This document shows positions 9,346-64,000 of a DNA stretch of 64,000 bases, one piece after another. The translations under genes and the position numbers were made by a program. The DNA comes from Escherichia phage EcS1. Location of the stretch: sequence record NC_055721.1; one strand, given 5' to 3'. Within the stretch, counting starts at the first letter, position 1, and each line of letters starts with the position of its first letter. Below the pieces are notes generated by a model. The model saw nothing but the letters and a program-made list of their open reading frames with translations. It ran no database searches and had not been told where the DNA came from.

Positions 9346-9644
9346 TACGCTACAGTCACCCTTTTAACGAAAAGTGTATCAAAAATTCGTTTGAAACGAA
9401 TCTGCTCCTCTTCATTATATCTCACATGTTCTGTTACGCGTTTATCGAACCACCACCATCGTGGGTAGAATGTAGTAATAGGTCTACCGACTTTTAAATT
9501 ACGTTCGATAAAACTTTTTTCTAAAGCTAAAATCTCTTCAGCTTTATCTTTATGCTTGAAAATTGTAGCTGTATCGCCATTTTCAAAAGGTAGTTCATAC
9601 CCATCTTTATCTTTCCAGACAAGAGTGTATCCATAATGCATCAC
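9345..9644 (-). CDS. hypothetical protein (dda.1 position)
   Basis: 99-aa ORF, stop/start overlap with dda. Confidence 0.4.
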   Translation of the reverse strand: MMHYGYTLVWKDKDGYELPFENGDTATIFKHKDKAEEILALEKSFIERNLKVGRPITTFYPRWWWFDKRVTEHVRYNEEEQIRFKRIFDTLFVKRVTVA

Positions 9645-10351
9645 ATCTTACCTCTAATCAATTGAATCATATTAGCACTCAGAGGAAGACCTTTCACAAT
9701 TTTCTTTTTGTCTAACCATGAAAGATTTTCAAAACGAGTCAAACCTTTGATTACTATATCATAAGAATGAACAGTTTCTTCAGCTTTAGAAGCCTTAGGC
9801 TTTTTCATAATTGGATTGGCTTTATGGCCTTTCATAAGACGTTTGATTTCAGATTCACCACCAATGATACGGGCCGACAAGCCTTTCTTCATTTCTTCAG
9901 GAAGACCTTTTTGGCTCAGATGTGCCTTACGTTTATCGATATTAGCCTGGATACGATTAATAGTTTTCTTGGCTTGTTTTGAAAGCTCACATGTACCATC
10001 AGAGACTTCAGCTTCTTTAGCATCTACTGAACGAACAATACGGCCAGCGATTTCATCTCGTTTTTGGATAAGTTCAAGAAGTTCAAAGTCACTACGAGCC
10101 TTGTTATACTTTTGCTTAACTGGGATGACATTACCTTCGATATAACCTAAAGCATTGTTGAAACGTTCTAACGTGAGCTTGTCATCTTCTTTATTATCGT
10201 TAAAGAGCTCGCCTGAGTACGCACAGCGGCTTTGAGTGACAACATTTGTTAGATACTTCAATGAAAGATTAAACTCTTTAGAGCGGCGACTAGCGCTATT
10301 ATACGTATTCACTAGACGGTTAGCTATGATAACTTCTTGTGGTTTAGCCAT
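9641..10351 (-). CDS. hypothetical protein with degenerate HNH-like motif and basic C-terminal half (srd position)
   Basis: CAYSG...LTLERFNNALGYIEGNV...N..K resembles an HNH finger lacking the catalytic His; identity with T4 Srd not verifiable by eye. Confidence 0.4.
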   Translation of the reverse strand: MAKPQEVIIANRLVNTYNSASRRSKEFNLSLKYLTNVVTQSRCAYSGELFNDNKEDDKLTLERFNNALGYIEGNVIPVKQKYNKARSDFELLELIQKRDEIAGRIVRSVDAKEAEVSDGTCELSKQAKKTINRIQANIDKRKAHLSQKGLPEEMKKGLSARIIGGESEIKRLMKGHKANPIMKKPKASKAEETVHSYDIVIKGLTRFENLSWLDKKKIVKGLPLSANMIQLIRGKM

Positions 10352-10395
10352 AATATTATCCTCAGATGCTTCAAGTTAAAATGTGGTATAATGAA

Positions 10396-11004
10396 TCAAG
10401 GTCTTTTCGATTCTATCATAACAGTTACTTGGGTGTAAATAGAATCAATAGCTGTTTGATCTAGAATTATCAATTCACTTCCTGCTGGTATCATCCACTC
10501 ATCTTCTCTATTAACCATATCTAACTTATCACCACGGTCAGTAGTTCCAAAAGGTGAACTTCTAGGTCTAAACTCAGATTCTGGCGCAGCCAGCAACATA
10601 TTGATCATTTCTTGTTGAAAGTTAAATGCTTTAGGGGCATCTATAAGCTTTAAAATTGTACGTGTTTCATATACATAAGTGCCTGCGAACTGACGAGCCA
10701 TGGCAAAATCAGTCGTGAACGACGTAACACGATGACCAGTATTAAAAGTATCGCCAATATCAAGGTCTTGGATTTGACGTAATGTAGAGTGACTTATGCC
10801 ACGATACAATTCATCTGGGGCTCTTGATAAACGAGAAGAAATAACTTCATTCAAGTTCTCATGGAACTTAGGCAATAACTTATCATTCATACATTGCCAT
10901 AAGATACTTTGTTCCCAGTCATCATAACCTGAGATTAATTCTTCATAAAATGGGACTTTTGATTCATCAAATTCGATATAAGTATAAAGCATGATGTCCT
11001 CCAC
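10396..11004 (-). CDS. ADP-ribosyltransferase, ModA/ModB-like
   Basis: 202 aa, length and position of T4 ModA/ModB; R-S-E triad context (ELYRG, VTSFTTD, EDEWMIP). Only one mod copy present. Confidence 0.65.
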   Translation of the reverse strand: MEDIMLYTYIEFDESKVPFYEELISGYDDWEQSILWQCMNDKLLPKFHENLNEVISSRLSRAPDELYRGISHSTLRQIQDLDIGDTFNTGHRVTSFTTDFAMARQFAGTYVYETRTILKLIDAPKAFNFQQEMINMLLAAPESEFRPRSSPFGTTDRGDKLDMVNREDEWMIPAGSELIILDQTAIDSIYTQVTVMIESKRP

Positions 11005-11050
11005 AGTTAGGTTAGGAAGACATCATATCATGAGAGGATTTAAATGTAAA

Positions 11051-11245
11051 CTATTTTGCCCAGGGAGCCCAAGGCGGAGGGTCTATAAAGAGAGAAGATA
11101 ATTCTTGAGCTAATGCAGGCGAAATTGTGACACTATGTTTGAGACCTATACCGACAATTTCATCAGCAATTTCTTTAGATGATTTTGGAACCGGCTTTTC
11201 TTCCGGTTCAGACAGCATGTCAAACAAATCCATTACATGTACCAC
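11051..11245 (-). CDS. hypothetical protein
   Basis: 64-aa ORF. Confidence 0.35.
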   Translation of the reverse strand: MVHVMDLFDMLSEPEEKPVPKSSKEIADEIVGIGLKHSVTISPALAQELSSLFIDPPPWAPWAK

Positions 11246-11778
11246 TTCAGAGACATTTCACGATTCACTTCATGTTCATTAAAACATGTACCAATCGCTT
11301 TACGTTCTTTTTGAACAGCTTCAGACCATTCATATTCTAGTCCAATATCACCTAGGAAGTCCCAGATTTTACGAGCTATAGCATCAACATCATTTTCATG
11401 AGTAATAGCAAACTTATTACCGCCTTCATACATTTCACGACTATCATATTTGAATAAACCAGTTTCGCCATTTGGACCAATATACCCACGTCGACTAAAT
11501 GACTGGATGATACTGAACGGCGATCCTGGGATACTTTCTACATCATGAGTGTGCATTATTTCAACTAAGCCATCTTTAGGGAACTTCATATTTTCAAATT
11601 TTCGAAGCACTTGCTCATAATCGTTTCGAGTGGTCTTTAAGATAGCTAGAGTAAAGACAGGACCTTCAAAAGGAATAACACCTGAAGCACGTTTACGACT
11701 TAGTTTGATTTTGTAAATTTTTGCGCTTTCCACAAATAGCACCTTCTTCATAATTAGGATTTTCAAGGAAGAACTCAT
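11233..11778 (-). CDS. hypothetical protein (frame C of a three-frame overlapping set; possible frameshifted gene)
   Basis: 181-aa ORF; no Shine-Dalgarno at candidate internal starts; overlaps upstream ORF by 86 nt. Confidence 0.3.
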   Translation of the reverse strand: MSSSLKILIMKKVLFVESAKIYKIKLSRKRASGVIPFEGPVFTLAILKTTRNDYEQVLRKFENMKFPKDGLVEIMHTHDVESIPGSPFSIIQSFSRRGYIGPNGETGLFKYDSREMYEGGNKFAITHENDVDAIARKIWDFLGDIGLEYEWSEAVQKERKAIGTCFNEHEVNREMSLKWYM

Positions 11779-51713: not shown

Positions 51714-52007
51714 TTATAAATTCACTAATCTTTCTCGATCACCACGCCAACTAAGATCAATAGGAATCTTGTGATAAGAAGCAATATCATTTCTATTAGC
51801 CAATAATTTAGAGACCTTAACTTGGGTGTCTTTAATCAATTCCTGAAGTCTTTCACTTGTGGCTGATGGGTTATATTCCTTTTCTATAAAAGAGTCCAGA
51901 ATCATCTTCTCAACTAACGATTTGAACTGTTCTTCAATAAGGTCCGATAAAGGACCTTTTTCGTATTGAGCTTTATTACCAAATACATCTTTACCAGTTT
52001 TAAGCAT
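51714..52007 (-). CDS. hypothetical protein
   Basis: 97-aa ORF. Confidence 0.4.
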   Translation of the reverse strand: MLKTGKDVFGNKAQYEKGPLSDLIEEQFKSLVEKMILDSFIEKEYNPSATSERLQELIKDTQVKVSKLLANRNDIASYHKIPIDLSWRGDRERLVNL

Positions 52008-52013
52008 AAATCC

Positions 52014-52992
52014 TCATTTCAACATTGTTACTTCAGCGATTTCCATCCAGTTATCATGGTCAGTAGCTACGAAGTCTGCTACATAAAGAGCCGTACGGAG
52101 TGAGACGTTACGAAGACGATTAACGTTAGACTTCATCCATTGTAAAGCTTCGATTGTTTCACTGTTTGATAAGCCACGTTTCTGCAACATATCTGTGTTC
52201 ATGATTACATCTTCAACGCGAACCATGATTTCTTCGTTTGAATGAACACCAAGGTCCAAATAAACAGAACGTGAAACCAGAGCTGCAAGATGTGGAGCAA
52301 GTTTAGAACCACGTTCTAATTCTTTGTCAACATCAACGTTAGTGATGAACACAACAGTTCCAGCAAATTCGAATTCTTTATCGATGTCTTTGTCATCAAG
52401 ATAAGACGAAGCAGTGCTCCAACAAACTTTACGAGTCTCACCAGTGTCTAAAGCAGCTTTCAGAAGGTTCAGGATATCCATGTCAGAGAAGATATCAACA
52501 TCATCAATCAGAAGCACATTACCTTCTTCTTTATTGTTCCAGAGTTGTTCGTAGAGACCGATACCTGAAATTTTGCCATTAATGCTTTTGAAAACAATAT
52601 CACCTTTTGCATCAGCACGTTTTAGAGCTTTCTCAAGGCTGTATGTCTTACCAATACCTGCAGCACCAGAGATGATTAAAGAACGAATGTTACCATTTAT
52701 GATACCAGTTGTCATCATGTTCATTACGTTAAAGCGCTTAGTGATACGAGCTTTCATTTCTTCAACTGATTCAACTTCCAGTGGAGAAGTTTCAACACCT
52801 TCCATTTCGATATCAGTTTTGAACACCCATACACCACGTTCTTTGCCATCGATTTGAACGAATACTTTGCCATCTCCCAAGTGTGCTTCATGAGCTGGAA
52901 CCATGTCCGGGAACCAAGTACGAGAAGCAATGTATTTACCAGAGATTTCGTTACCGCGGTAAGTACCTTTATTGATTTGAACGTTGAACATT
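52014..52992 (-). CDS. P-loop ATPase (AAA-like) with N-terminal unknown domain
   Basis: Walker A ISGAAGIGKTY, Walker B LLIDDVD; likely start ATG 52990-52992 (MFNVQINKG) with GGAG upstream. Confidence 0.5.
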
Positions 52993-53012
52993 TTATTTCT
53001 CCAAGTAAGTCT

Positions 53013-53057
53013 GTTTTGTTTCGATGTAGCTATAATAACATGTTTGAAGCAGATGTA
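53013..53057. repeat. 45-bp conserved upstream element, copy A (MotA-box-like TGCTTCA)
   Basis: Differs at one position from copy B at 53509-53553; lies upstream of ORF 52014-52992. Confidence 0.7.
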
Positions 53058-53062
53058 CACAC

Positions 53063-53491
53063 TTATTTGCAAAGATTCCACTGAATCAAAGTATATTTTT
53101 CGTTGTAACCAGCTTTTTCCATTTGAGCAGCAAATTCTTCAAAGTTTTTAGAAGATTCAAAGAAATTCACAGCCAATTTAGTAGGCTTAGCAACACGTTT
53201 TTCAGATTTAACTTCAACTGCTTTAACAACTTCAACCACTGGAGCTGATTCAATGATATCACATGAACCATCTGAATAACGAGCCCATACTTCGTTACCA
53301 ACTTTAAACATTGCTGCTTTACGACCGTTAGGCATTTCTACCATTTTACCTTTCAACTTAGTTACTTCAGTAATAACTTTGTCACCATACTCTTCAAAAC
53401 GATCTTTAGCCATTACGCCATCAGTAGAAGCAATCATTGGGAAGTTGAAATGGTAATAAGCAAAATTACGAATTGCATAATAAGTTTTCAT
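53063..53491 (-). CDS. hypothetical protein
   Basis: Likely start MKTYYAIRN at 53489-53491. Confidence 0.4.
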   Translation of the reverse strand: MKTYYAIRNFAYYHFNFPMIASTDGVMAKDRFEEYGDKVITEVTKLKGKMVEMPNGRKAAMFKVGNEVWARYSDGSCDIIESAPVVEVVKAVEVKSEKRVAKPTKLAVNFFESSKNFEEFAAQMEKAGYNEKYTLIQWNLCK

Positions 53492-53508
53492 TTTTAACTC
53501 CATTTACT

Positions 53509-53553
53509 TGTTTTGTTTCGATGCAGCTATAATAACATGTTTGAAGCAGATGT
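53509..53553. repeat. 45-bp conserved upstream element, copy B
   Basis: tgttttgtttcgatgcagctataataacatgtttgaagcagatgt; upstream of ORF 53063-53491. Confidence 0.7.
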
Positions 53554-53569
53554 GTACTTTTATTTTTGC

Positions 53570-53612
53570 AAATCTAAAAATAAATGCCCGAAAGGGACCA
53601 CAAAGGTCCCTT
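53570..53612 (-). terminator. rho-independent terminator
   Basis: A-rich run then gggacc-acaaa-ggtccc hairpin downstream of ORF 53615-53896. Confidence 0.5.
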
Positions 53613-53614
53613 TA

Positions 53615-53896
53615 TTAAGAGTGTTTATTAATCTGATTATGAGCTAGTTTTTTAGGTAAGAACCAAATAGCTTTAAACAAAGATACAATACCAATACAGA
53701 TAGCAATCCATAACCATAACGTCAAGAAGAACCAGAAATCAGTAGCTGTATCAACTACACCACGTTTAATCAGTTGACGAGTAATAATGTAGCCTACTAT
53801 AAAGTAGACAATAAGGATGAACCCAAATAATACCATAAGTGTTATACTCATATTTCGTCCCAATATAACTTGAACTCTATTTGATGACGAGCCCAT
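53615..53896 (-). CDS. membrane protein
   Basis: 93 aa with three hydrophobic segments. Confidence 0.4.
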   Translation of the reverse strand: MGSSSNRVQVILGRNMSITLMVLFGFILIVYFIVGYIITRQLIKRGVVDTATDFWFFLTLWLWIAICIGIVSLFKAIWFLPKKLAHNQINKHS

Positions 53897-54093
53897 CTTT
53901 TAAATTTACGAACTTGATTCTTAGTAGGTTTACAAGCAAACTTACTATTCACTCTGAAACCAGTTTCTCTGCAAACAGCTTCAAGATACCAACGTCTGCC
54001 TGTTCGAGGATGAGCTCTCCCGTAAGAGAGCCAGGTTTTCATTATACTATCTGTTGTAATAAGCATCATGGTTTTCAAGATAAACCTCTTCAA
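53848..54093 (-). CDS. hypothetical basic protein
   Basis: 81-aa ORF. Confidence 0.35.
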   Translation of the reverse strand: MKRFILKTMMLITTDSIMKTWLSYGRAHPRTGRRWYLEAVCRETGFRVNSKFACKPTKNQVRKFKRWARHQIEFKLYWDEI

Positions 54094-55060
54094 CGAATTT
54101 GTCCCAAAAGCTCATATCGACTTTAGAAGGCATACCGTTCTTGTGAGCCTGAACAGATAAACGCTCTACATCATCTACACAGATTTCTAACCATTCTTGA
54201 ACTTGTTTAAACGGAACAGTACCAGTTTTAACTTTAGTCAAGAATTCAGCATCTTTCAAAGGATATTTCAAGTCGCCAGTTGAATAGATTTCTTGAAGTT
54301 GAATACCACCACGTAATGCATGACTCAAAGCTTTCCAATCGATACCTTGGTTAGCTTCGGCCTTACGAGCACGTTCGCCATATTCGTCCCATAGTTTCAT
54401 GAGAGAATGTTTCATTTCTTTAATTGTGATAGTTGTCTGGAACTTACGGCCCAACACTTCATAGAAATGTTGTTGACCTGATTTATGGTCTGTAAACGTT
54501 GTCCATTCCAGGAATTCACCTAATGGAAGTTGAGAAGCAAAGTCAGACACACGCCAACGATCATTGATACCTTTCTGTTCTGGACGGTCAGAGTATTTCC
54601 ATTCAGGGATAGGTTCGATGACTTCGATTACTTTACGTAGGTCGGCCAGTCTTGAACCCTTTACACCATATTTCGCAGCTTGCTTACGGACATAACCAAG
54701 ATAGGCTTTCATGTCTGTCGTATAGAACTTGCTACGGTTGTCTTGGATAAACTTCCAGATATCAGGCAGGTCAGACTTAACTACAAGATTGCTAGGAGTA
54801 TGAAGCATGTCAAGAGCAACAGTTTCTCCTTCAGCAGCGAGTTTGAAGAAATACTTGAGAGAAAAGAGTTCATGGTCAACGTCATCTTTAGAGTTCTTAG
54901 AAGAACTGTTGTTAGTGTTCAAGTTAGTGTGATTCATTGCCTGGCACATCAAGATATCACGTGGATGTGGCACAAAGATTTCTTTATAGTCGACATCACT
55001 TTCTGGAGTAGATGTGCCATAAAGATGTGAGCCAAAATAACCTTTCATTACTGTTTTCAT
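54047..55060 (-). CDS. Pol-beta-superfamily nucleotidyltransferase
   Basis: 337 aa; N-terminal GSHLYGTSTPESDVDY fits the hG[GS]-x(9-13)-DxD NTase core. Confidence 0.5.
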   Translation of the reverse strand: MKTVMKGYFGSHLYGTSTPESDVDYKEIFVPHPRDILMCQAMNHTNLNTNNSSSKNSKDDVDHELFSLKYFFKLAAEGETVALDMLHTPSNLVVKSDLPDIWKFIQDNRSKFYTTDMKAYLGYVRKQAAKYGVKGSRLADLRKVIEVIEPIPEWKYSDRPEQKGINDRWRVSDFASQLPLGEFLEWTTFTDHKSGQQHFYEVLGRKFQTTITIKEMKHSLMKLWDEYGERARKAEANQGIDWKALSHALRGGIQLQEIYSTGDLKYPLKDAEFLTKVKTGTVPFKQVQEWLEICVDDVERLSVQAHKNGMPSKVDMSFWDKFVEEVYLENHDAYYNR

Positions 55061-55500
55061 AAGTAGATATGTTCCCGTTTAGCGAATTTAACCAGCTCAT
55101 TAGCTTGTTTAATCTTGCCTTCAATTTCAGCTTTATCTGTACTTTTTTTAGAAGTTACTTGAATATTTCCAATTTGCTTATACGTATAGAAATATTCTAC
55201 TTCATGCTGGTGATACATTTCGCCGTCAGGATGTTGTTCACGATTCACTACAGAACGCATCTTAGTTTCAATAATAGGCCAAACCGCCCAATCAGATGGA
55301 GTCTTAATGATTGCAACAGAGATTTTATATTTCTCATACTTGTAGTCATTAATATAACCTAAAATACGTGCAGCAGGATCCATCATCGCAAAACGAATAT
55401 CAGCATGACTTGCACGAGGCATTTGATTCACGATGCTCATTGTGAGCTTCTTTTTAGTCGTTACGATTTCAATATCCACGGATGAATTCCCATTGACCAT
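55057..55500 (-). CDS. hypothetical protein
   Basis: 147-aa ORF. Confidence 0.4.
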   Translation of the reverse strand: MVNGNSSVDIEIVTTKKKLTMSIVNQMPRASHADIRFAMMDPAARILGYINDYKYEKYKISVAIIKTPSDWAVWPIIETKMRSVVNREQHPDGEMYHQHEVEYFYTYKQIGNIQVTSKKSTDKAEIEGKIKQANELVKFAKREHIYL

Positions 55501-55771
55501 TATGATAACGAATCATTGACTCAGGGTCTAATCGACCTTCAGTCACAGAAGTATTGCCTGTAATAATATTATGCTTAACTTTAATTACTTCACCGTTTTC
55601 AAAAGTGAAAATAGCAATAGGGTAAAGAGATATTAAACCTCTTTCGACTGAAGCATTAAACACGGCCTTACGGTCGTTTACTACACAATTACTATATTCT
55701 TTAAGCATTTTGAAGTCCAAAGGCTGCAATAGCTGTGTTATCACGAGGGTTAACCATAGAAGCTTTGCCAC
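55469..55771 (-). CDS. hypothetical protein
   Basis: 100-aa ORF. Confidence 0.4.
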   Translation of the reverse strand: MAKLLWLTLVITQLLQPLDFKMLKEYSNCVVNDRKAVFNASVERGLISLYPIAIFTFENGEVIKVKHNIITGNTSVTEGRLDPESMIRYHNGQWEFIRGY

Positions 55772-56255
55772 GAGGGTCTGTCAAGAACAGAGTACCGTCT
55801 GGAGCTACAGCAACAACTGTATAACACTTACTATCTTTAAACAAAATATCAGAGGCCACTACAGGAGTGAATTCAGGTTCAGACACGCGTTTCATTTTAC
55901 AAGGCATCATAGCTTCGTTGAATGTAACTTTCTCATTGCCAATAGAGTCAACAGACATTTCGCCTAAGTTACTAGCATTCATTGAAGTACTATTAACCAT
56001 AGTGTATGTCTTACCCATAAGGTCAATAATAATCAAATGATTATCGTTAGATGAAAGATGTTGAGCATACATCACAGTTTTACTTGGTGTTTTATGAATC
56101 AAGCGGATAATATACTTAGTCCAATCAGAAATAGAATATCGTCCTCGATCAAGATAGATATTATCACCAACAGCGAACTCTACTAATTTAGTTTTTGATA
56201 CGTTTTTAGAATGACCAATCATTTTGTGTTCCTCAATGAGGGCCTTGCGGCCCAT
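55701..56255 (-). CDS. hypothetical protein
   Basis: 184-aa ORF. Confidence 0.4.
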   Translation of the reverse strand: MGRKALIEEHKMIGHSKNVSKTKLVEFAVGDNIYLDRGRYSISDWTKYIIRLIHKTPSKTVMYAQHLSSNDNHLIIIDLMGKTYTMVNSTSMNASNLGEMSVDSIGNEKVTFNEAMMPCKMKRVSEPEFTPVVASDILFKDSKCYTVVAVAPDGTLFLTDPRGKASMVNPRDNTAIAAFGLQNA

Positions 56256-56260
56256 TTTAA

Positions 56261-56749
56261 TTATTTAGATTTTTCTACATCAATGAATTCAAGGCTCGGG
56301 CAGTATTTAGACTTTTTAGCCTTAATAAAACTTACCAGCAAAGATGGTTCTTTTTCAGGCACGCCTGATTCAATACGTTCACGTCGTTTACGATAGCGAC
56401 GTTCTTCAAAATAATCTTTAATATATTCATAGACCCAATGGGTACCAAATGCAATACCTAAACCCACTGCGATTGTAGTAGCTAACATGATAGCGCCGAC
56501 AATAACACCTGGAACAATAGCACCAATTGTACCTAAATGAATGCCAATATAACTTGCCAGCCAAATAGCTATTTCATGACCTAAGAACCAAGCAAAGAAT
56601 CCAATAATCAAAGCTTTAAATGATGCAAAGCAAGTAAAGAACAAAGTTTTCCAGAAATAAGGACATAATGAAGTAGGAATACGCCATTCACTGTTATTAC
56701 AATAGAACATATTCAGTTTGTAGTGCCAAGAATTACGTTTAATTTGCAT
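56261..56749 (-). CDS. membrane protein
   Basis: 162 aa; several TM-like segments and a basic RYRKRRER patch. Confidence 0.4.
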   Translation of the reverse strand: MQIKRNSWHYKLNMFYCNNSEWRIPTSLCPYFWKTLFFTCFASFKALIIGFFAWFLGHEIAIWLASYIGIHLGTIGAIVPGVIVGAIMLATTIAVGLGIAFGTHWVYEYIKDYFEERRYRKRRERIESGVPEKEPSLLVSFIKAKKSKYCPSLEFIDVEKSK

Positions 56750-56966
56750 TTAATGCCTCTTTCATTGAAGGAATAACTGAAGTCAGATAACGAACCATTG
56801 CTTCTGCTTCTTGTTTAGTAAATGTAATCGTATCTCGGTCTTGACCAATTATAACGATATCAACGTTTTTAAATTTAGAACGGCTCAAATGAGTCGTTTC
56901 ATTTTTGAAAGGTCCTACATCCGATTTGATTACGGCTTTAGTTCCAATTCCAGTCCATAACAACAT
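56739..56966 (-). CDS. hypothetical protein
   Basis: 75-aa ORF. Confidence 0.35.
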   Translation of the reverse strand: MLLWTGIGTKAVIKSDVGPFKNETTHLSRSKFKNVDIVIIGQDRDTITFTKQEAEAMVRYLTSVIPSMKEALNAN

Positions 56967-56974
56967 AATACACC

Positions 56975-57238
56975 TTAGAGCAAGTTATATTCGGGATCAT
57001 TAGCTTTGATAGCTTCGAGAATGTTATTATAACCTTCAGAATCTTTACGCACAATAGTCATACAATATGGTAATGATTCAGTTTGTTTCACGAAACGTTC
57101 GAGATAATGAACATTAGGTTGGTTCATACCATACATCAATGAACCAGTAGCGCCTTCATATTGGCAAACTTCAACTAGCATTTTATTGTTATATTGGCGA
57201 GATAAAATAAAGTCGCCTACATGAATTTTAGTTGTCAT
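56975..57238 (-). CDS. hypothetical protein
   Basis: 87-aa ORF. Confidence 0.35.
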   Translation of the reverse strand: MTTKIHVGDFILSRQYNNKMLVEVCQYEGATGSLMYGMNQPNVHYLERFVKQTESLPYCMTIVRKDSEGYNNILEAIKANDPEYNLL

Positions 57239-57410
57239 TGAAAACCTCTTTAAGCATCAAATAGAGCTCTTTAGTTTGCTGCTCATCTAGAACAACAAGG
57301 TCTTTAACTTGTTCTAAGGTAATTTTAGGACCACGGTCCATTATGTTGTATTGGCTAACAGAACAAGTAAAATTAGCATCATATGATTTATTGAATATAA
57401 CTTTTTTCAT
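57228..57410 (-). CDS. hypothetical protein
   Basis: 60-aa ORF. Confidence 0.3.
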   Translation of the reverse strand: MKKVIFNKSYDANFTCSVSQYNIMDRGPKITLEQVKDLVVLDEQQTKELYLMLKEVFNDN

Positions 57411-57411
57411 A

Positions 57412-57705
57412 TTACCTCAATTGTGAGTCTTTTGACCCACGGCGGTTGTAGTAGCTTTTAACCATGTTATCAGCCTTGCTTTGACATTCAACACAAAGTA
57501 GACAACCACGAACAGCCTGACGACGAGCCAAAGGAATAGGTTCATCACAATCCTCACAGAATTCATTACTTTCACGTTTTGAAGCAATTTCTAATTCAAG
57601 GCGAGCCCAAGAAACTGCATCATCGATAACGGCTTCACGAGTAGCAAAACCTTCATCACTTGGACCCCATCCGTTCATTATAAGTTCTCCTGATTGAGAG
57701 GACAT
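57412..57705 (-). CDS. DksA/TraR-family C4 zinc-finger protein
   Basis: CEDCDEPIPLARRQAV.GCLLCVECQ; real start probably the second ATG (MNGWGP, about 57678), since the first ATG lies inside the promoter -10. Confidence 0.55.
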   Translation of the reverse strand: MSSQSGELIMNGWGPSDEGFATREAVIDDAVSWARLELEIASKRESNEFCEDCDEPIPLARRQAVRGCLLCVECQSKADNMVKSYYNRRGSKDSQLR

Positions 57706-57745
57706 CTTATAATGACCTCTCTGTGTTGTAAACTAGTCTTCGTAC
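57700..57745 (-). promoter_or_regulatory. T4-type early promoter (GTTTAC-18-TAAGAT) with inverted repeat
   Basis: gtaaac at 57728-57733, -10 at 57704-57709; inverted repeat GAGAGG/CCTCTC around the -10. Confidence 0.45.
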
Positions 57746-58200
57746 CAAAAATCAGACCAATCGTTCATTTCTTGTTGCTCAAAATGGTCTTGAGCAGTTA
57801 TACGTTCAGCATAAGCAGCATCATCAGGGTCACTGAACTTGTCATCACGAAGTTCCTGAAGGAACATCATAGCATCTTCTTTAGAAGGCATGACTCGGTT
57901 CAAGTTATGAGCAGAACGATGTTGATGAGCACCATCAAATACACCACAATCAGCAATTGATGTTTCGGTTTCATAAGAACGTTCTTCACCATCTGACATA
58001 TAAACACAGATAATCTTAACAAACATAGCAGTATATGGTGTTGAACTATGAGTACCTAAAGCAACTGGATAAGGCTTACTCAAGATAATGTATTTGCTGA
58101 TTTCAGATTCATCAACTTTAGTGTTAGTACGATTAACTCCGTACACATGATACATGATACGACCTGGGTAGAACTCGGAAACAGATTTGATACGTTTCAT
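57733..58200 (-). CDS. hypothetical protein
   Basis: Likely start ATG 58198-58200 (MKRIKSV); the caller's longer ORF runs through promoter and terminator. Confidence 0.4.
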   Translation of the reverse strand: MKRIKSVSEFYPGRIMYHVYGVNRTNTKVDESEISKYIILSKPYPVALGTHSSTPYTAMFVKIICVYMSDGEERSYETETSIADCGVFDGAHQHRSAHNLNRVMPSKEDAMMFLQELRDDKFSDPDDAAYAERITAQDHFEQQEMNDWSDFWYED

Positions 58201-58230
58201 TTTAATTTCCTCAGTTTGTTTCAGTAGGTC

Positions 58231-58260
58231 TATAGTATCACGTCCCTCGAGGATGTAAAC
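58231..58260 (-). promoter_or_regulatory. T4-type early promoter (GTTTAC-17-TACTAT)
   Basis: gtaaac at 58255-58260; CTCGAGG palindrome in the spacer. Confidence 0.4.
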
Positions 58261-58264
58261 ATCT

Positions 58265-58297
58265 AAACAAAAAGGCACTCCTCTTTTGAGAAGTGCC
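58265..58297 (-). terminator. rho-independent terminator
   Basis: A-run then ggcactcctc-tttt-gagaagtgcc hairpin downstream of ORF 58303-58683. Confidence 0.5.
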
Positions 58298-58302
58298 GAT
58301 AA

Positions 58303-58683
58303 TTATTCCAACGAAAGCAAATATTTCGTTTGGTAACATACGCCTACGATCTCATCGACCGTGTTCTGGATAGCGGATGGTAACGTTTTGTGAATAGTGT
58401 TGGATTCATTTACTATCATGTCCAACATCTTGATTGTGTCAGTCGGGAATGCAGGTTGAGGTGCAGGCACGAATTTTTTGCCACTGAATCCTAACCATTG
58501 TTCGCCAAACTTGTCGGTTAACTCTGGGATTTCACTAAAGAACTTATCATAAGCTTTATGTCTTGAATAGTTCTTAGTTTCGAAATGTGCTGAATGGAAG
58601 TATGATGCTGAAGCAAGCAAAAGACTAATATATGAATCAGCTGGTTCTACTTTCCCATCCTTTATGAACTCATTAAATTTCAT
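58303..58683 (-). CDS. hypothetical protein (rI.1 position)
   Basis: 126-aa ORF immediately downstream of rI. Confidence 0.4.
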   Translation of the reverse strand: MKFNEFIKDGKVEPADSYISLLLASASYFHSAHFETKNYSRHKAYDKFFSEIPELTDKFGEQWLGFSGKKFVPAPQPAFPTDTIKMLDMIVNESNTIHKTLPSAIQNTVDEIVGVCYQTKYLLSLE

Positions 58684-58963
58684 TTTCTAAAGGAACCTTC
58701 ATACGATTAGCGTATTCTTGACCTGCACTTTTCCCATCAATAGAACAGTTGTTATAGCACTCACCTTCTTGTTCTTGCCATTTAGCACTAATAAAAGCAA
58801 AGAACTTTTCGGACTGTTGTTTACTCGGTTCTTTGAACTTAGAATAAACTGTTAATGCTCCTTCAACGTATTGATTGAAACTAGCATCTTGTGCCGATGA
58901 AACTGATGGAGCCAAACAGGCTCCAATTAATATTGTTGTTGATAAAACACGAATAAGGCCCAT
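58673..58963 (-). CDS. rI: lysis inhibition regulator RI (periplasmic)
   Basis: 96 aa with N-terminal signal anchor; EKFFAFI...GQEYANRMKVPLENEI parallels my recollection of the T4 RI C-terminus. Confidence 0.6.
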   Translation of the reverse strand: MGLIRVLSTTILIGACLAPSVSSAQDASFNQYVEGALTVYSKFKEPSKQQSEKFFAFISAKWQEQEGECYNNCSIDGKSAGQEYANRMKVPLENEI

Positions 58964-58972
58964 AAGGACTCC

Positions 58973-59185
58973 TTATTTTTGCCCTGTATTTTTCTTATGC
59001 TGCAGAACAGCCTTAACCGTAACGAGGTATTTTTCTAGCAATCGACAGTGAATGTAATCAGCTTCGAATCCGTTATCTTTGAAATCTTGTTTAGAAGCAG
59101 CGATAGCCGTTCCTAGCTCACGACGGATTTCATCGAGAGATTCAGTGCGTAGATTACGAAGTTTCTTTTCGCTCAAATATTGCAT
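58973..59185 (-). CDS. hypothetical protein
   Basis: 70-aa ORF with late-promoter motif and AAGAGG upstream. Confidence 0.4.
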   Translation of the reverse strand: MQYLSEKKLRNLRTESLDEIRRELGTAIAASKQDFKDNGFEADYIHCRLLEKYLVTVKAVLQHKKNTGQK

Positions 59186-59212
59186 GTAGACCTCTTAGGT
59201 TAGTTACACAAG

Positions 59213-59220
59213 TATTTATA
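59213..59220 (-). promoter_or_regulatory. late promoter motif TATAAATA
   Basis: Plus-strand tatttata about 27 nt upstream of the ATG at 59185. Confidence 0.4.
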
Positions 59221-59231
59221 TTCTTTTACAG

Positions 59232-59576
59232 TTAGTCCCACATCATCTGGGCGACGCCTTTTTCGTACTTACGAGCAGCAATTTCGTCCCAGTTGTAGTC
59301 GGTACCATTTTTCAACGAACTTTTTATTTCCATTTTATGCATATTACGAGGAATAGGCATTGAATATTGAGACCAACGAAGAGTTTTCCAAAAGGAATCA
59401 CGATGGCGTTCTTTCTGAAGCTTCTCAGCTTGAGCAGGCATTTCTAAATTATCTTCAATGTAACGTTTAATGCAATAAGAATCTTTACGTACATGATAGA
59501 AGATATTTGTGTTCTGGTCATTCCACTTTGAAGATGTAGTGCAATGCCAGCCTTTACGACGGATAGTTCTTGACAT
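59232..59576 (-). CDS. hypothetical protein
   Basis: 114-aa ORF; AGAGG Shine-Dalgarno. Confidence 0.4.
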   Translation of the reverse strand: MSRTIRRKGWHCTTSSKWNDQNTNIFYHVRKDSYCIKRYIEDNLEMPAQAEKLQKERHRDSFWKTLRWSQYSMPIPRNMHKMEIKSSLKNGTDYNWDEIAARKYEKGVAQMMWD

Positions 59577-59634
59577 ATTAACCTCTGAGTTTACATTAAA
59601 GTAGCTCAGTGGTAATAGAATCCTGATTTAAACA

Positions 59635-59757
59635 TTAGCTGTTCCTTACGATTTCTACAACTATCATAATCATTGCTAGAAAACCCATAGCAGCATAATC
59701 ACTTGTACCAAGTGCAATAAGCGATAGGATAAGCATAGCAATGGAATAGATAATCAT
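59635..59757 (-). CDS. small hydrophobic peptide (40 aa)
   Basis: Unlisted ORF MIIYSIAMLILSLIALGTSDYAAMGFLAMIMIVVEIVRNS with AGAGG upstream. Confidence 0.3.
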   Translation of the reverse strand: MIIYSIAMLILSLIALGTSDYAAMGFLAMIMIVVEIVRNS

Positions 59758-59758
59758 A

Positions 59759-59929
59759 TTAACCTCTGTCAATTATTTCATAGATTTCATTTAGCGAATC
59801 ATTACCGTCTCGAGCTATAATAAGTTCTTCAAGACTGATTTCTTTTTCACCACAACCTAACTGTACAAAATGTTCTTTTAAGAGAGAACGTAAAGCTTCT
59901 AGAGCTTCTTGTTTAGTTTGTACTGTCAT
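59759..59929 (-). CDS. small hypothetical protein (56 aa)
   Basis: Unlisted ORF MTVQTKQEALEALRSLLKEHF...; stop abuts the next ATG (TAATATG); start overlaps the tk 3' end. Confidence 0.3.
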   Translation of the reverse strand: MTVQTKQEALEALRSLLKEHFVQLGCGEKEISLEELIIARDGNDSLNEIYEIIDRG

Positions 59930-60506
59930 ACATACCTACTTTATCACACCAATGTTTTCTGCACAATGAAACATACTTATCATTACCACCCATTACTACT
60001 TGGGCTCCATCAATAACAGCATTACCTTCTTCATCGAGACGAGCTACCATTGTTGCTTTACGTCCGCAATGACAGACACCTTTAAGTTCTACTAACTTAT
60101 CGGCTACGGCTAACAATGCTTTAGAACCTTCGAACAGATCGCCACGGAAGTCAGTTCTGAGCCCGTAAGCCATCACAGGGACATCATATAAATCAACAAT
60201 ACGACACAGTTGGAACACCTGTTCAGCCATTAAGAACTGTGCTTCATCAATCAGAACACAATGAATATCTCGTTGAGCTTGAGCCCATTTAAAGAATTCA
60301 AGGATGTCCATATCACGTGTGATAATGTTAGCTTCTTGACGAAGACCAATGCGAGAAACAACTTCAGAGGCCGAATCACGATCATCTAAAGCAGGTTTCA
60401 TTACTAGCGTACCCATACCACGTTCTTTGTAGTTATGAGCTACCGAAAGAAGCGCAGTACTTTTACCAGCGTTCATTGATGCAAAATTAAAATAAAGTTG
60501 AGCCAT
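59913..60506 (-). CDS. tk: thymidine kinase
   Basis: 197 aa; P-loop SMNAGKST, Walker B VLIDEAQF, C-terminal zinc-binding Cys pairs; as T4 Tk. Confidence 0.9.
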   Translation of the reverse strand: MAQLYFNFASMNAGKSTALLSVAHNYKERGMGTLVMKPALDDRDSASEVVSRIGLRQEANIITRDMDILEFFKWAQAQRDIHCVLIDEAQFLMAEQVFQLCRIVDLYDVPVMAYGLRTDFRGDLFEGSKALLAVADKLVELKGVCHCGRKATMVARLDEEGNAVIDGAQVVMGGNDKYVSLCRKHWCDKVGMYDSTN

Positions 60507-60718
60507 TATTTAGGTTCCTTTGATTCAATCCATTCAGGGGTAGTTTGAAAGAACCCTTCACCAGCATGGTTTTTGCAGGTCTTATTGGAACAATACAACC
60601 ACCAGTCCCATTCGCTATAAGGTAGTTGATTAAACATACCGTCATTACATAAAGTGAATACAATAGGCCAATGACAATCTTTACAACGACATTTATCTTT
60701 TGTATGAGCTTGTGGCAT
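60506..60718 (-). CDS. Cys-rich small protein
   Basis: 70 aa; CRCKDC...C...C..C. Confidence 0.4.
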   Translation of the reverse strand: MPQAHTKDKCRCKDCHWPIVFTLCNDGMFNQLPYSEWDWWLYCSNKTCKNHAGEGFFQTTPEWIESKEPK

Positions 60719-60918
60719 TATAGTTTACCTACTTCACATCCAGCTGGAGGAGTCCAAAAATTCTCTTGGACAAAGTCAATTAAAGCCTGACGTTGAAAAT
60801 CAGCTTCAGTTTCGCGAGTTCGCCATTCCATATCTGAAATTTCTGAATCGCAATTAGCTTCTTCTGCTGCACGAGCTGCATCTTCGAAACGCTTTAATAC
60901 TGCAAAGAATTCTTTCAT
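60718..60918 (-). CDS. hypothetical protein
   Basis: 66-aa ORF. Confidence 0.35.
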   Translation of the reverse strand: MKEFFAVLKRFEDAARAAEEANCDSEISDMEWRTRETEADFQRQALIDFVQENFWTPPAGCEVGKL

Positions 60919-61093
60919 TCTGATATACTCTCAAGAAATTGGTTTAATGCGAATTGAGCATTATTTTTGTATTCAAGGGCTTTATCATACCCATCCATAT
61001 CACCTTGTGAAGACTCATAACAAAGGTCTCCTTCGGCTTCTACAACATCAGCGACTAAATCAAGAATAACTCGAACATGTTCTTTAGTAATCA

Positions 61094-61291
61094 TTATACA
61101 CCTATTACGTCAAGAAGCTCTTTATACACAGAAGCTAATTCATCAGCGGATTCTTTAACTAATTGACTAGGCCCTTCCATTGATTGATACTGATGGTCTT
61201 TAGCTGCATCAATTAGTCGATCAATAACTTCACAAATCATAGCATGTTCTTCATCAGATCGTGTGCTCATATCCATTGGACCCTTAAACAA
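61094..61291 (-). CDS. hypothetical protein
   Basis: 65-aa ORF (TTG start per caller). Confidence 0.3.
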   Translation of the reverse strand: MFKGPMDMSTRSDEEHAMICEVIDRLIDAAKDHQYQSMEGPSQLVKESADELASVYKELLDVIGV

Positions 61292-61506
61292 AATTCTTCA
61301 ATATGTTGTGTTCGTTTCTTTTTATCAATATAATTATATTCGATAAAAGTGCCAAGATATTCTTTTTCTTGAACTTTAGAAATAATAGGACAACGAGTTT
61401 TGCGGACTTCTTGCCATTGTCTAATTATTGTTGCTTTATTTTTTGGATCAAATGGGTGTGGATAGTGTATTTTCATTAGGAGCCCAATCAACAATAACCA
61501 CGTCAA
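61267..61506 (-). CDS. hypothetical protein
   Basis: 79-aa ORF. Confidence 0.35.
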   Translation of the reverse strand: MTWLLLIGLLMKIHYPHPFDPKNKATIIRQWQEVRKTRCPIISKVQEKEYLGTFIEYNYIDKKKRTQHIEEFCLRVQWI

Positions 61507-61939
61507 TATTAGGTGTGAACATATTGATTAATGCTTCAACTTTAGTCCAATCACCACCTGCAATACCACATCCAATACGAGGCATATAGATTTGAGGAAT
61601 ACAAATCTGATTCTCGGCCCATTTGTTCAATTCTATCAAAGAATCTACTAATGCACCATAGCGTAAATCAGGCCCAGCATAATATTGAGTATAAAGATTA
61701 AAGCAAATATTTTCTTGCTTATTGAAGCGAGTGCTTAATACGGCTTTAGTAAAGGTACCAAGTTTTCGGATATCAGCAAAATCTGTATCTTTGTCAATAG
61801 CTTCAATAGGATAATAAGCTTTAGCTAATTGACCCGCTATGCCACCACCCATTGTATGGAAACAGTTACAGCCATGAGCGATATTTTTACCTGAAAGAAA
61901 CAAGGCGACGATGTCGCCTTTAATATATTTTGTAATCAT
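61448..61939 (-). CDS. macro-domain protein (ADP-ribose binding/hydrolase-like)
   Basis: 163 aa; HGCNCFHTMGGGIAGQ and RIGCGIAGG resemble the macro-domain glycine-rich motifs. Confidence 0.5.
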   Translation of the reverse strand: MITKYIKGDIVALFLSGKNIAHGCNCFHTMGGGIAGQLAKAYYPIEAIDKDTDFADIRKLGTFTKAVLSTRFNKQENICFNLYTQYYAGPDLRYGALVDSLIELNKWAENQICIPQIYMPRIGCGIAGGDWTKVEALINMFTPNIDVVIVDWAPNENTLSTPI

Positions 61940-62289
61940 CTTTTACTCAATCCACGGTTATAAGAATCAACTAATCTATCTACCATTGAAGCACACATAT
62001 CTTTATAATGTGCTTGTGCTGGTATACATTCTAGCGTCATCAATCGACCTTCATATCGACGAATTAGCGTATCGTTTTTAAAACGAGACTTACTATCCCT
62101 TTCGCCATCTTTATATGAAGACATCATTTGTAAAGAAAAACCATTGATGCAGTCGATATTAGTAGGAGAACAGTAATCCTTCGCTGTTCGCGTAACATAT
62201 TCTAATACCTCAGTCGGTTCAGTCGACTGTTCTGCATGGACTCCCAGACCCACGGTTAACCCAAGGATTAGAACTGTTTGTTTTAGCAT
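61936..62289 (-). CDS. secreted/periplasmic protein
   Basis: 117 aa; MLKQTVLILGLTVGLGVHA signal peptide; four Cys in mature part. Confidence 0.45.
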   Translation of the reverse strand: MLKQTVLILGLTVGLGVHAEQSTEPTEVLEYVTRTAKDYCSPTNIDCINGFSLQMMSSYKDGERDSKSRFKNDTLIRRYEGRLMTLECIPAQAHYKDMCASMVDRLVDSYNRGLSKR

Positions 62290-62927
62290 TATTCCACCGT
62301 TTGATGTAACATCTTATTTGATTTAAGATAGTTCGCTTTAGATAGAACATCAGAAGCATATTTGTTTCCGGCCTTTACTGCCCAACCTGCATTATAACTA
62401 GACAGAGCCTTACGCATATCACCTTTATGAATTTCAAGCCAATAGCTTAATTCAATATATGCCCATGCTGCAGAATTTTCTCTACTCTTGACCATTCGAA
62501 TAATTTCACGGTCAGACATGTTGTAGCCTAATTGCTTAGTACGACTACGTAACGTTGGAAGATAATTCTGAAACATTCCATACGCATGATGTTCTTTCGA
62601 CTTTTTTGTAAGAACTCCAGCAGAAGATTCTTGCCAAGCCAAACCGGCCATAATATACCCAAGGCCATTATTATTGTATCGAGCGTTGTGCTCTTTGAAC
62701 TTACCCGACTTCTGATATTGTTCACCAAAAGCATACGCGAATTGTAAATTATCGAGTTGTTCATTACTGAAGTTAGGCGTAGACCCATGGGCCATAGAAC
62801 TAATAGCCAATAGAACTACTGCTATTGCTTTTTTCATGATTTCTCTCTTATAGGTCAATAACTTTTGTGCTAATTTTTCCTTCAAGACGTTTGTTGTTGA
62901 TGAATGCCATACGACATGTGAGCCCAT
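62289..62927 (-). CDS. lytic transglycosylase (SLT domain) with signal peptide
   Basis: Likely start MKKAIAVVLLAISSMAHG; SLT motifs AGLAWQESS, YGMFQ, SYNAG. Confidence 0.6.
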   Translation of the reverse strand: MGSHVVWHSSTTNVLKEKLAQKLLTYKREIMKKAIAVVLLAISSMAHGSTPNFSNEQLDNLQFAYAFGEQYQKSGKFKEHNARYNNNGLGYIMAGLAWQESSAGVLTKKSKEHHAYGMFQNYLPTLRSRTKQLGYNMSDREIIRMVKSRENSAAWAYIELSYWLEIHKGDMRKALSSYNAGWAVKAGNKYASDVLSKANYLKSNKMLHQTVE

Positions 62928-63306
62928 AAGAGCTAGCCGTTTGACCTTTGTCTACTGTCATACCAAGCCACAAGTTGCGGTCAGTAATTTCGAGACGGAG
63001 TGGACGATATTCTACACCAGGAAGAATATGATCTTCAATATCAGGCAATGGTTTCAGACGTAGATATTCTACGACATCAACCACTTTTCTGTGAAGTTTA
63101 TGGAACAAGTTGAACACATAAGTTTCGTCGATTTCACGTTGGATAGCACGGTCCAATAGATGAGGTGAATACTTAAGGTGAAAAACTTCTTTTATACCAT
63201 ATTCTTTACAGGCCTTTTTAAGTTCAGCATTGATTGAGTTAAACTCCGTTTCAAAGATACGACGGAGTTTGTTACGACGGATATAAACACTAGAATCAAT
63301 AGACAT
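62848..63306 (-). CDS. regB: endoribonuclease RegB
   Basis: 152 aa; VYIRRNKLRR.FE.EF..IN.E...A.K..G...FHLKYS.HLLDRAIQREIDETYVF.LFHK matches my recollection of T4 RegB. Confidence 0.9.
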   Translation of the reverse strand: MSIDSSVYIRRNKLRRIFETEFNSINAELKKACKEYGIKEVFHLKYSPHLLDRAIQREIDETYVFNLFHKLHRKVVDVVEYLRLKPLPDIEDHILPGVEYRPLRLEITDRNLWLGMTVDKGQTASSYGLTCRMAFINNKRLEGKISTKVIDL

Positions 63307-63333
63307 TTTCTTCTCCTTTGTTTGTGTAAGGTC

Positions 63334-63362
63334 ATCTTAACACATCCTTAGGAGAAGTAAAC
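63334..63362 (-). promoter_or_regulatory. T4-type early promoter for regB (GTTTAC-17-TAAGAT)
   Basis: gtaaac at 63357-63362, -10 at 63334-63339, about 28 nt upstream of the regB ATG. Confidence 0.45.
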
Positions 63363-63679
63363 TAGTAAGATTCTACTGGTTGGAATACTGCACGACAGGC
63401 CCACATGCTTGCTTCTTTCAGACGTTCTTTAGCAGTAGAAACTTGGTGCACACGGTCCATAAGATCATCTAAGACCTTAACATCTTCATTATATGCTTTA
63501 GAGTATTGATCAGAGAGTTCAGTTTCAATTTCAGTAAACAATGCACCTAACTCAACTTCAAGAGATTTGATACGATTTACAGTTTCGATCTTTTTATTGG
63601 TATGAGGCTTATAGCCTTTGATGTCTTCAATCATAATGAATTTCCTCATTAGTTTCTTTATCATATTCAACAAGTTCAA
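63362..63679 (-). CDS. hypothetical protein
   Basis: 105-aa ORF, helical/charged. Confidence 0.4.
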   Translation of the reverse strand: MNLLNMIKKLMRKFIMIEDIKGYKPHTNKKIETVNRIKSLEVELGALFTEIETELSDQYSKAYNEDVKVLDDLMDRVHQVSTAKERLKEASMWACRAVFQPVESY

Positions 63680-63878
63680 TAGGTTCTAAGTGACCATAAC
63701 CTCTGGTACCGAGATAACTATTGCTATCTTCATATGTCATGGTTTTAGGATTCCAGCCTGAATCAGCCCAAGCTTCCATTAAACCTTGTTCACCTGAATT
63801 ACTGAACCAGCTACAGAATTCAGCTATTGCTTTTTCACTACCCTTTATAATAACTTGCGCCATGTAGGCTCCATACAA
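63627..63878 (-). CDS. hypothetical protein
   Basis: 83-aa ORF; likely start MAQVIIKG. Confidence 0.35.
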   Translation of the reverse strand: MYGAYMAQVIIKGSEKAIAEFCSWFSNSGEQGLMEAWADSGWNPKTMTYEDSNSYLGTRGYGHLEPIELVEYDKETNEEIHYD

Positions 63879-64000
63879 ATGATTCGTTGGTCATAAGTGA
63901 TAAGACTTGATGTTCTAAGTCCGTCGAGTTTGCCGCCTAAAAATACGACAGAAAAATGTGGATGCTTATTCATCAAACTCACATCAGGAGATGTACATAA

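Follow-up and report, generated by a model that had tools for sequence, protein, structure and literature searches.

A macrodomain gene in the tk-regB block of phage EcS1

We analyzed a 64,000-nucleotide stretch of the genome of Escherichia phage EcS1 (sequence record NC_055721.1), hereafter termed the window, with a focus on a gene for a predicted macrodomain protein that lies between the thymidine kinase gene tk and a regB-type endoribonuclease gene. The initial annotation, made from the sequence alone, assigned this protein to an open reading frame (ORF) at 61448-61939, and we find it exactly there, on the minus strand, with an ATG start and a length of 163 residues. The genes tk and regB flank the ORF as described (Table 1), and the two motifs that had prompted the macrodomain call, TMGGGIAGQ and RIGCGIAGG, are both read in this ORF after reverse-complementing the window sequence. 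It is not a chance ORF, because its product matches PHROG 335 with an expectation value (E) of 5.6e-61, because tblastn detects its homologs in 2,692 of the 50,697 phage records searched, and because a search of a collection of 5.8 billion proteins returns 351 protein clusters at E<=1e-3, mostly of 150-156 residues. PHROG 335 carries the label 'phosphatase', and some phage records already annotate homologs as macro-domain proteins.

Sequence profiles and a structural model place the protein among macrodomains

As a single sequence, the window protein exceeds the threshold of the Pfam Macro family (PF01661) narrowly, with 23 bits against a cutoff of 22 (E = 7.9e-5, model positions 2-117 of 118). 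A phmmer search with the same single sequence against PDB sequences returns macrodomains only, including BT1257 (8e-9), SCO6735 (7e-8), yeast Poa1p (9e-8), Mycobacterium tuberculosis (Mtb) DarG (1.4e-3), and TARG1 (2.6e-3). We then used a family alignment, A1, which comprises 64 Tk.4-type members (named after the T4 homolog described below) down to 36% identity, and the profile built from it. Against PDB sequences, the A1 profile matches BT1257 (3.4e-20), TARG1 (4.3e-17), SCO6735 (4.7e-16), Poa1p (1.6e-15), Mtb DarG (1.7e-12), and Thermus aquaticus (Taq) DarG (1.2e-10). The single-sequence Pfam score is marginal, and it is the A1 family profile that we regard as decisive for placing the protein, at the level of sequence, among macrodomains. 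The PADLOC model for DarG also matches the window protein (E = 2.3e-7).

The structural model of the window protein predicted by AlphaFold2 on the A1 alignment has a predicted local distance difference test score (pLDDT) of 91.9 and a predicted template modeling (TM) score of 0.87; only residues 158-163, in a C-terminal extension that is missing from most homologs, which have 151-156 residues, are below a pLDDT of 50. In a Foldseek search of this model against the PDB, TARG1, Poa1p, BT1257, SCO6735, and DarG rank first, and the top 21 matches are all macrodomains with a probability of 1.00. The target-normalized TM-score is ~0.63-0.80 across these 21 matches, except for the 406-residue DarTG chain 7OMU. 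The top structural match is TARG1/OARD1 (PDB 4J5R; E = 4e-10), with a TM-score of 0.69 when normalized to the query and 0.80 when normalized to the target. Among the viral models of BFVD, macrodomain proteins of phages rank highest, one of them being 'tk.4 [Acinetobacter phage 133]'.

In the alignments, TMGGGIAGQ and RIGCGIAGG correspond to loops 1 and 2 of TARG1, BT1257, SCO6735, and DarG. Specifically, they align with CRMGAGIAV and PRIGCGLDRLQW of TARG1, and with GGWGKGFVL and PRIGCGLAGGKW of BT1257. The macrodomain call is borne out by Pfam Macro, by the family-profile matches to PDB macrodomains, and by the AlphaFold2 model with its Foldseek matches; in profile and structure searches no non-macro fold emerged, and macrodomains occupy the top matches throughout. 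On profile and model evidence, the window protein is thus a macrodomain, best explained as a stand-alone 163-residue macrodomain of the class that contains TARG1, DarG, and SCO6735 ('ALC1-like').

The gene corresponds to T4 tk.4

The initial annotation knew of no macrodomain in T4. This premise does not hold: the T4 RefSeq record has tk.4 (NP_049723, 155 residues) in the same slot, located between tk.3 and vs and annotated as 'phosphatase; contains A1pp phosphatase motif'. BLASTP aligns residues 1-154 of the 163 residues of the window protein with T4 Tk.4 at 52% identity and 71% positives (E = 3e-62). Both proteins belong to the 'phosphatase' group PHROG 335, and both contain the motifs HGCNC, NLYTQ, and PRIG-G, with Gln replacing the catalytic Lys. 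They differ in loop 2, which is RIGAGIGKG in T4 and has the family consensus RIGCGIAGG in the window protein, and in an 8-residue C-terminal extension carried by the window protein.

The gene order is likewise shared. In the window, with neighbors identified by PHROG, it is tk, small ORFs, the macrodomain gene, vs, a vs.1-like gene (phrog_600), and regB, while in T4 it is tk, tk.1-3, tk.4, vs, vs.1, and regB; the two differ in the number of small ORFs between tk and the macrodomain gene, which is five in the window and three (tk.1-tk.3) in T4. The ATG of the macrodomain gene overlaps the TGA stop codon of vs by 4 nucleotides (ATGA), and the overlap of vs and tk.4 in T4 is identical (vs, 61386-61733; tk.4, 60922-61389, in T4 coordinates). 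The ATGA overlap suggests co-transcription and translational coupling of vs and the macrodomain gene. Judged from sequence and gene order, the window gene is the syntenic ortholog of T4 tk.4, now also named adfM.

The window derives from a T-even phage close to the genus Winklervirus. In the phage collection searched, the nearest relatives of positions 52000-64000 are members of that genus, namely Erwinia phage Vettismorki and Serratia phages X20 and CHI14. Nucleotide identity between this interval and the nearest phages, which also include Kosakonia phage Kc304, is ~79% over ~70% of the length. The counterpart protein of Vettismorki is 93.6% identical to the window protein and is labeled 'phosphatase'.

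The active site has a glutamine in place of the catalytic lysine

To compare active-site residues, we aligned the window protein, T4 Tk.4, PhiKZ gp104, BT1257, SCO6735, TARG1, and DarG with MAFFT. The T4 Tk.4 sequence was taken from the BLASTP match and lacks its last 2 residues; the PDB sequences (BT1257, SCO6735, TARG1, and DarG) are partial chains from HMMER alignments and are numbered as in the literature.

Within the A1 family, all 64 members have Q85, N25, H22, G23, C26, D49, N81, Y83, and T84; G33 and A35 in the region of loop 1 and P120, G123, G125, and W131 in the region of loop 2 are likewise invariant, and C24 is present in 63 and G31 in 62 of the 64. Q85, the last residue of NLYTQ, occupies the position of Gln85 of SCO6735, Lys84 of TARG1, and Lys80 of DarG (in FPTK), and the equivalence of the latter three is stated in PMC9411070. 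The window protein, T4 Tk.4, BT1257, and SCO6735 all have Gln at the catalytic-Lys position, and the HMMER alignment of A1 to TARG1 agrees. The catalytic dyad of TARG1, Lys84/Asp125, accordingly reads Gln85/Ala127 in the window protein, where A127 aligns with Asp125. N25 aligns with Asn27 of SCO6735, the conserved Asn of DarG, and N23 of PhiKZ gp104, while H22 aligns with the His of SCO6735. Four of the Tk.4-type invariants, G23, C26, D49, and Y83, are missing in SCO6735, BT1257, TARG1, and DarG. Furthermore, the segment from Q85 to Y93 spans 9 residues in the window protein, as it does in 45 of the 64 family members; the aligned segment of SCO6735 and BT1257 has 14-15.

SCO6735 (PDB 5E3B) and BT1257 (PDB 2FG1/2AFC) are the best or near-best sequence and profile matches of the window protein. 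They share with it the fold, a Gln in place of the catalytic Lys, a conserved Asn and a conserved His, and a PRIGCG(L/I)AGG-W loop, but they are only 28-29% identical to it and are cellular proteins rather than products of a phage counter-defense gene. SCO6735 has been characterized biochemically (PMC9411070): although it has no catalytic Lys, it efficiently cleaves ADP-ribose put by DarT on thymidine in vitro, but not ADP-ribose on guanosine, and it protects E. coli against DarT. The substitutions Q85A and Q85E abolish its activity, and N27S leaves almost none (PMC9411070). In the mechanism put forward for it, a water molecule mediates the reaction while Gln85 orients the distal ribose (PMC9411070). 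The authors link two SCO6735-specific features to the activity on DNA, Val/Ile25 and a mobile loop ~5 residues longer than that of DarG and TARG1 (PMC9411070).

A probable role against DarTG2

The function of the T4 ortholog has been addressed genetically. When a T4 transposon library was grown on a DarTG2 host (HIDEN-SEQ), tk.4 alone reached significance, and T4 with a clean tk.4 knockout was sensitized to DarTG2 (November 2025 preprint, bioRxiv 10.1101/2025.11.20.689424). The authors renamed the gene adfM, for 'anti-DarT factor macrodomain', and noted structural similarity of its product to the macrodomain of Mtb DarG (10.1101/2025.11.20.689424). Against DarTG1, T4 has a companion factor, the NADAR protein AdfN (gene 30.3), whose substrates are guanine adducts (PMC11825919). 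TARG1, the top structural match of the window protein, is described as also reversing thymidine-linked DNA ADP-ribosylation in work cited in PMC9411070 and PMC13036486.

The initial annotation had suggested that the macrodomain could reverse phage- or host-imposed ADP-ribosylation, including marks of the DarT type, and had pointed to a ModA/ModB-type gene in the same window. The DarT part of this suggestion is supported by the T4 tk.4 screen and knockout, and is already published for T4; the ModA/ModB part is unlikely, given the arginine linkage of the modification and the distance of ~50 kb between the genes (see below). We consider it probable that the window gene is a T4 tk.4/adfM ortholog whose product removes DarT2-made ADP-ribose from thymidine by SCO6735-type catalysis. 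We infer by analogy that thymidine-ADP-ribose is an enzymatic substrate of the window protein and of the Tk.4 type at large.

In the proposed mechanism, the macrodomain protein would probably be made before DNA replication, along with Vs, from the tk-regB block. The two glycine-rich loops would bind the ADP-ribose moiety, and the protein would hydrolyze the N-glycosidic bond between ADP-ribose and thymine that the host DarT2 toxin puts on single-stranded phage DNA at TNTC motifs. Catalysis would probably be of the SCO6735 type, in which the invariant Q85, itself held by the invariant N25, orients the distal ribose together with a water molecule, with no catalytic Lys involved. Hydrolysis would restore a replicable template and would allow the phage to escape the abortive defense exerted by DarTG2.

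The reaction proposed for the window protein is, by analogy, identical to that of DarG of DarTG2 (PDB 5M3I, 5M31, and 7OMU), the removal of DarT2-made ADP-ribose from thymidine, and the two belong to the same macrodomain class (Foldseek probability of 1.00; profile E = 1.7e-12). They nevertheless differ in several respects. The catalytic Lys80 of Taq DarG (FPTK) is Gln85 (LYTQ) in the window protein, the identity between the two is 19-21%, and the window protein, with 163 residues compared with ~340, has no C-terminal DarT-binding domain. No darT gene adjoins the window gene, whose neighbors are vs and a small PHROG 2008 gene. Assignment of the window protein as a DarG antitoxin was considered and rejected, as it scores 22 bits with the NCBIfam DarG equivalog against a cutoff of 250.

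Several observations weigh against the proposed role or its mechanism. The Tk.4-type family lacks the Lys on which catalysis by DarG and TARG1 depends. Both SCO6735-specific features are absent as well: Gly23 takes the place of Val/Ile25, and the loop that follows Gln85 is short by 5-6 residues. The family has invariants of its own (C26, D49, and Y83), and the window protein is 52% identical to T4 Tk.4, so its specificity could differ. The evidence for T4 is genetic, and the authors of the preprint say only that enzymatic removal of ADP-ribose 'seems likely' (10.1101/2025.11.20.689424). In three papers on hydrolase specificity (JACS 2026, NAR 2025, and NAR 2026), we found no assay of a Tk.4-type phage protein; the one assayed in vitro is the T4 NADAR protein AdfN (30.3). 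We do not file the window protein as a typical SCO6735-type enzyme because of Gly23, the shorter loop, and the family's own invariants. From its residue pattern, it is better described as probably working like SCO6735 and as related to the Gln-type subclass without being a typical member, and Tk.4-type proteins may constitute a distinct active-site variant.

Two macrodomain lineages named AdfM

The name AdfM has also been given to gp104 of PhiKZ, a protein of chimalliviruses (Cell Rep 2026, PMC13309987). PhiKZ gp104 strips DarT2-made ADP-ribose from DNA in vitro, rescues DarT2 toxicity, and is imported into the phage nucleus, and mutation of its conserved catalytic-site Asn (construct N23A) reduces activity (PMC13309987). 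Like the window protein, gp104 is a stand-alone phage macrodomain of ~160 residues with the gene name AdfM, and it counters DarTG2. The two proteins are, however, of different lineages. In a PDB search with the translated published construct, gp104 matches Mtb DarG at E = 9e-25 with the Lys of FPTK intact, compared with 1.4e-3 for the window protein, and its identity to the window protein is only 17-19% (BLASTP E = 0.003 over 37 residues; hhalign probability of 95.6%). PhiKZ gp104 is Lys-type and DarG-like, whereas T4 Tk.4 and the window protein are Gln-type and SCO6735-like. The identity between gp104 and T4 Tk.4 is likewise 17-19%. PhiKZ and T-even phages therefore carry different macrodomain lineages for what is apparently one job, since gp104 is DarG-like and only 17-19% identical to the window protein.

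We tentatively raise a broader proposal, which we regard as possible but short of probable. T-even phages and chimalliviruses may each have acquired their anti-DarT2 macrodomain on their own, from lineages that differ in mechanism, and the Tk.4 type may be a third ALC1-like active-site variant, Gln-type, with a short loop and its own Gly23, Cys26, Asp49, and Tyr83. Such a variant could have different or broader substrates, for example uracil-ADP-ribose on RNA or the marks of other defense ADP-ribosyltransferases, in addition to thymidine-ADP-ribose on DNA.

Alternative functions

An alternative that we consider unlikely is that the main or an additional substrate is another mark on nucleic acids, such as uracil-ADP-ribose on RNA or a mark made by other ADP-ribosyltransferases of defense systems or competitors, with DarT2 as one of several targets. 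Uracil-ADP-ribosylation of RNA is also reversed by each of TARG1, DarG, and SCO6735 (PMC13036486), the Tk.4-type family's own invariants C26, D49, and Y83 and its short loop set it apart from SCO6735, and its 2,692 records show a very wide distribution over phages with many different hosts. On the other side, SCO6735 is inactive on guanine-, 5'-phosphate-, and 2'-OH-linked ADP-ribose (PMC9411070 among the sources), and T4, with tk.4, is still strongly restricted by CmdTAC, which ADP-ribosylates adenine in mRNA (PMC11618068). The restriction of T4 led us to reject a role of the macrodomain against the mRNA ADP-ribosyltransferase CmdTAC.

The protein could instead act on small molecules, as a Poa1p-like ADP-ribose-1''-phosphate phosphatase or as an O-acetyl-ADP-ribose deacetylase, and so remove metabolites derived from NAD in the infected cell, a reading that we judge improbable. 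It agrees with existing labels, namely the A1pp phosphatase motif in the T4 Tk.4 entry, the name of PHROG 335, and 'O-acetyl-ADP-ribose deacetylase' given by JGI to some relatives, and yeast Poa1p is a strong profile match (1.6e-15) and a structural match (Foldseek E = 6.5e-9). These labels, however, derive from domain names and not from assays, and BT1257, TARG1, and SCO6735 score as well as or above Poa1p; by profile and fold, the similarity to Poa1p does not exceed that to the enzymes that remove ADP-ribose from DNA and proteins. The sole known phenotype of an ortholog is sensitivity to DarTG2. To our knowledge, T4-type tRNA repair (Pnk/Rnl1) yields no 2'-phosphate or Appr>p, and we know of no obvious phage source of the substrate.

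Still less probable, in our judgment, is protection from DarT2 without catalysis, whether by binding or blocking the toxin, as ICP1 AdfB or the C-terminal domain of DarG does, or by shielding ADP-ribosylated DNA. Non-enzymatic anti-DarT factors do exist, as AdfB binds DarT (PMC11481870), and the Lys that is essential for catalysis by DarG and TARG1 is absent from the window protein. The counterparts of Gln85 and Asn27, which SCO6735 requires, are nevertheless invariant down to 36% identity, as expected of an enzyme, and nothing in the window protein corresponds to the C-terminal domain with which DarG binds DarT.

The initial annotation linked the macrodomain to a ModA/ModB-type gene at 10396-11004, and this gene is real: it matches phrog_832, 'RNA polymerase ADP-ribosylase', at E = 1.2e-32, and is flanked by srd-like and mrh-like genes (Table 1). 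In the interval 9641-11778 we see a single Mod-like ORF, whereas modA and modB lie in tandem in T4. With such a gene in the window, the macrodomain might erase the marks of the phage's own Alt, ModA, or ModB, and thereby tune or undo the ADP-ribosylation or RNAylation of host proteins; some Glu/Asp-linked ADP-ribosylation of proteins is also a substrate of SCO6735 and TARG1 (PMC9411070). This reading is supported by no phenotype, and the two genes lie ~50 kb apart, with no linkage. Alt, ModA, and ModB modify arginine, and ADP-ribose on arginine is removed by ARH/DraG-type enzymes; we know of no cleavage of arginine-linked ADP-ribose by macrodomains of the TARG1/DarG class. We consider an eraser role highly improbable, because the arginine linkage is outside the known scope of the macrodomain class, and reversal of ModA, ModB, or Alt modification was rejected on linkage chemistry and on the absent genomic linkage.

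Other features of the locus

The coordinates of the macrodomain gene, its predicted motifs, and neighboring and related genes are collected in Table 1.

Table 1. Features of the EcS1 window discussed in the text (window coordinates).
Feature	Position	Strand	Evidence or remarks
Macrodomain gene (T4 tk.4/adfM ortholog)	61448..61939	minus	ATG start, 163 residues; ORF list, Pfam, PHROG, BLASTP, AlphaFold2, Foldseek
Codons H22-G23-C24-N25-C26	61862..61876	minus	Family and reference alignments
Loop 1, TMGGGIAGQ, residues 29-37; putative first glycine-rich ADP-ribose-binding loop (GxG motif)	61829..61855	minus	Alignment with TARG1 RMGAGIAVL and DarG VMGKGIALQ
Codons N81-L82-Y83-T84-Q85	61685..61699	minus	HMMER profile alignment to TARG1; MAFFT reference alignment
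Loop 2, RIGCGIAGG, residues 121-129; putative second glycine-rich, diphosphate-binding loop	61553..61579	minus	Reference alignments
vs (valyl-tRNA synthetase modifier), upstream of the macrodomain gene	61936..62289	minus	phrog_1256, E = 7.4e-33
Small PHROG 2008 gene, downstream of the macrodomain gene	61267..61476	minus	phrog_2008, E = 1.4e-32
Thymidine kinase gene tk	59913-60506		
regB-type endoribonuclease gene	62848-63306		
vs.1-like gene	62289-62927	minus	phrog_600
ModA/ModB-like ADP-ribosyltransferase gene	10396-11004	minus	phrog_832
srd-like anti-sigma gene, flanking the ModA/ModB-like gene	9641-10351	minus	
mrh-like gene, flanking the ModA/ModB-like gene	11233-11778	minus	

Downstream of the macrodomain gene, the PHROG 2008 gene sits in the slot of T4 tk.3, a correspondence of position. 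The phrog_2008 match starts at residue 11 of the listed ORF, and the start of the gene is likely the internal Met at 61476. From this start, the gene overlaps the 3' end of the macrodomain gene by 29 nucleotides; the arrangement in Erwinia phage Vettismorki is similar, with an overlap of 35 nucleotides. Among the five small ORFs between tk and the macrodomain gene (60506-61506, minus strand), the ORF at 61094-61291 (65 residues, TTG start) has no PHROG family match.

Upstream of vs, the listed vs.1-like ORF overlaps regB by 80 nucleotides, and its PHROG 600 match begins at residue 31. The true start is probably an internal Met (MKKAIAVVLLAISSMAHG...), and the sequence there resembles a signal peptide.

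Within the macrodomain ORF, a hairpin, AAGGCGAC-ATC-GTCGCCTT, with a perfect 8-bp stem and a 3-nucleotide loop is present at 61902-61920. It lies 20-38 nucleotides past the ATG, in the codons for KGDIVALF, and is flagged on both strands by a terminator scan. The hairpin is probably a coding coincidence, but it could affect translation initiation or mRNA stability. It is the sole notable candidate in the terminator scan of positions 59500-64000. A sigma-70 promoter scan of the same interval gave 19 promoter-like sites against 16.1 expected, which is uninformative, and we claim no dedicated promoter.

Implications

The macrodomain finding is correct but already known, and the premise of its novelty is wrong. 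The novelty is lost because T4 has tk.4, the product of which is 52% identical; the gene family has carried a macro or A1pp annotation in T4 for some two decades, thousands of phage genomes contain it, and its role against DarTG2 was reported in 2025. The present analysis corrects the premise of a T4 without a macrodomain, and it replaces the uninformative label 'phosphatase' with a specific and testable function.

The distinction between the two types of AdfM is relevant both to biochemistry and to naming: AdfM of the Tk.4 type is SCO6735-like, without the catalytic Lys of DarG, while AdfM of PhiKZ is Lys-type.

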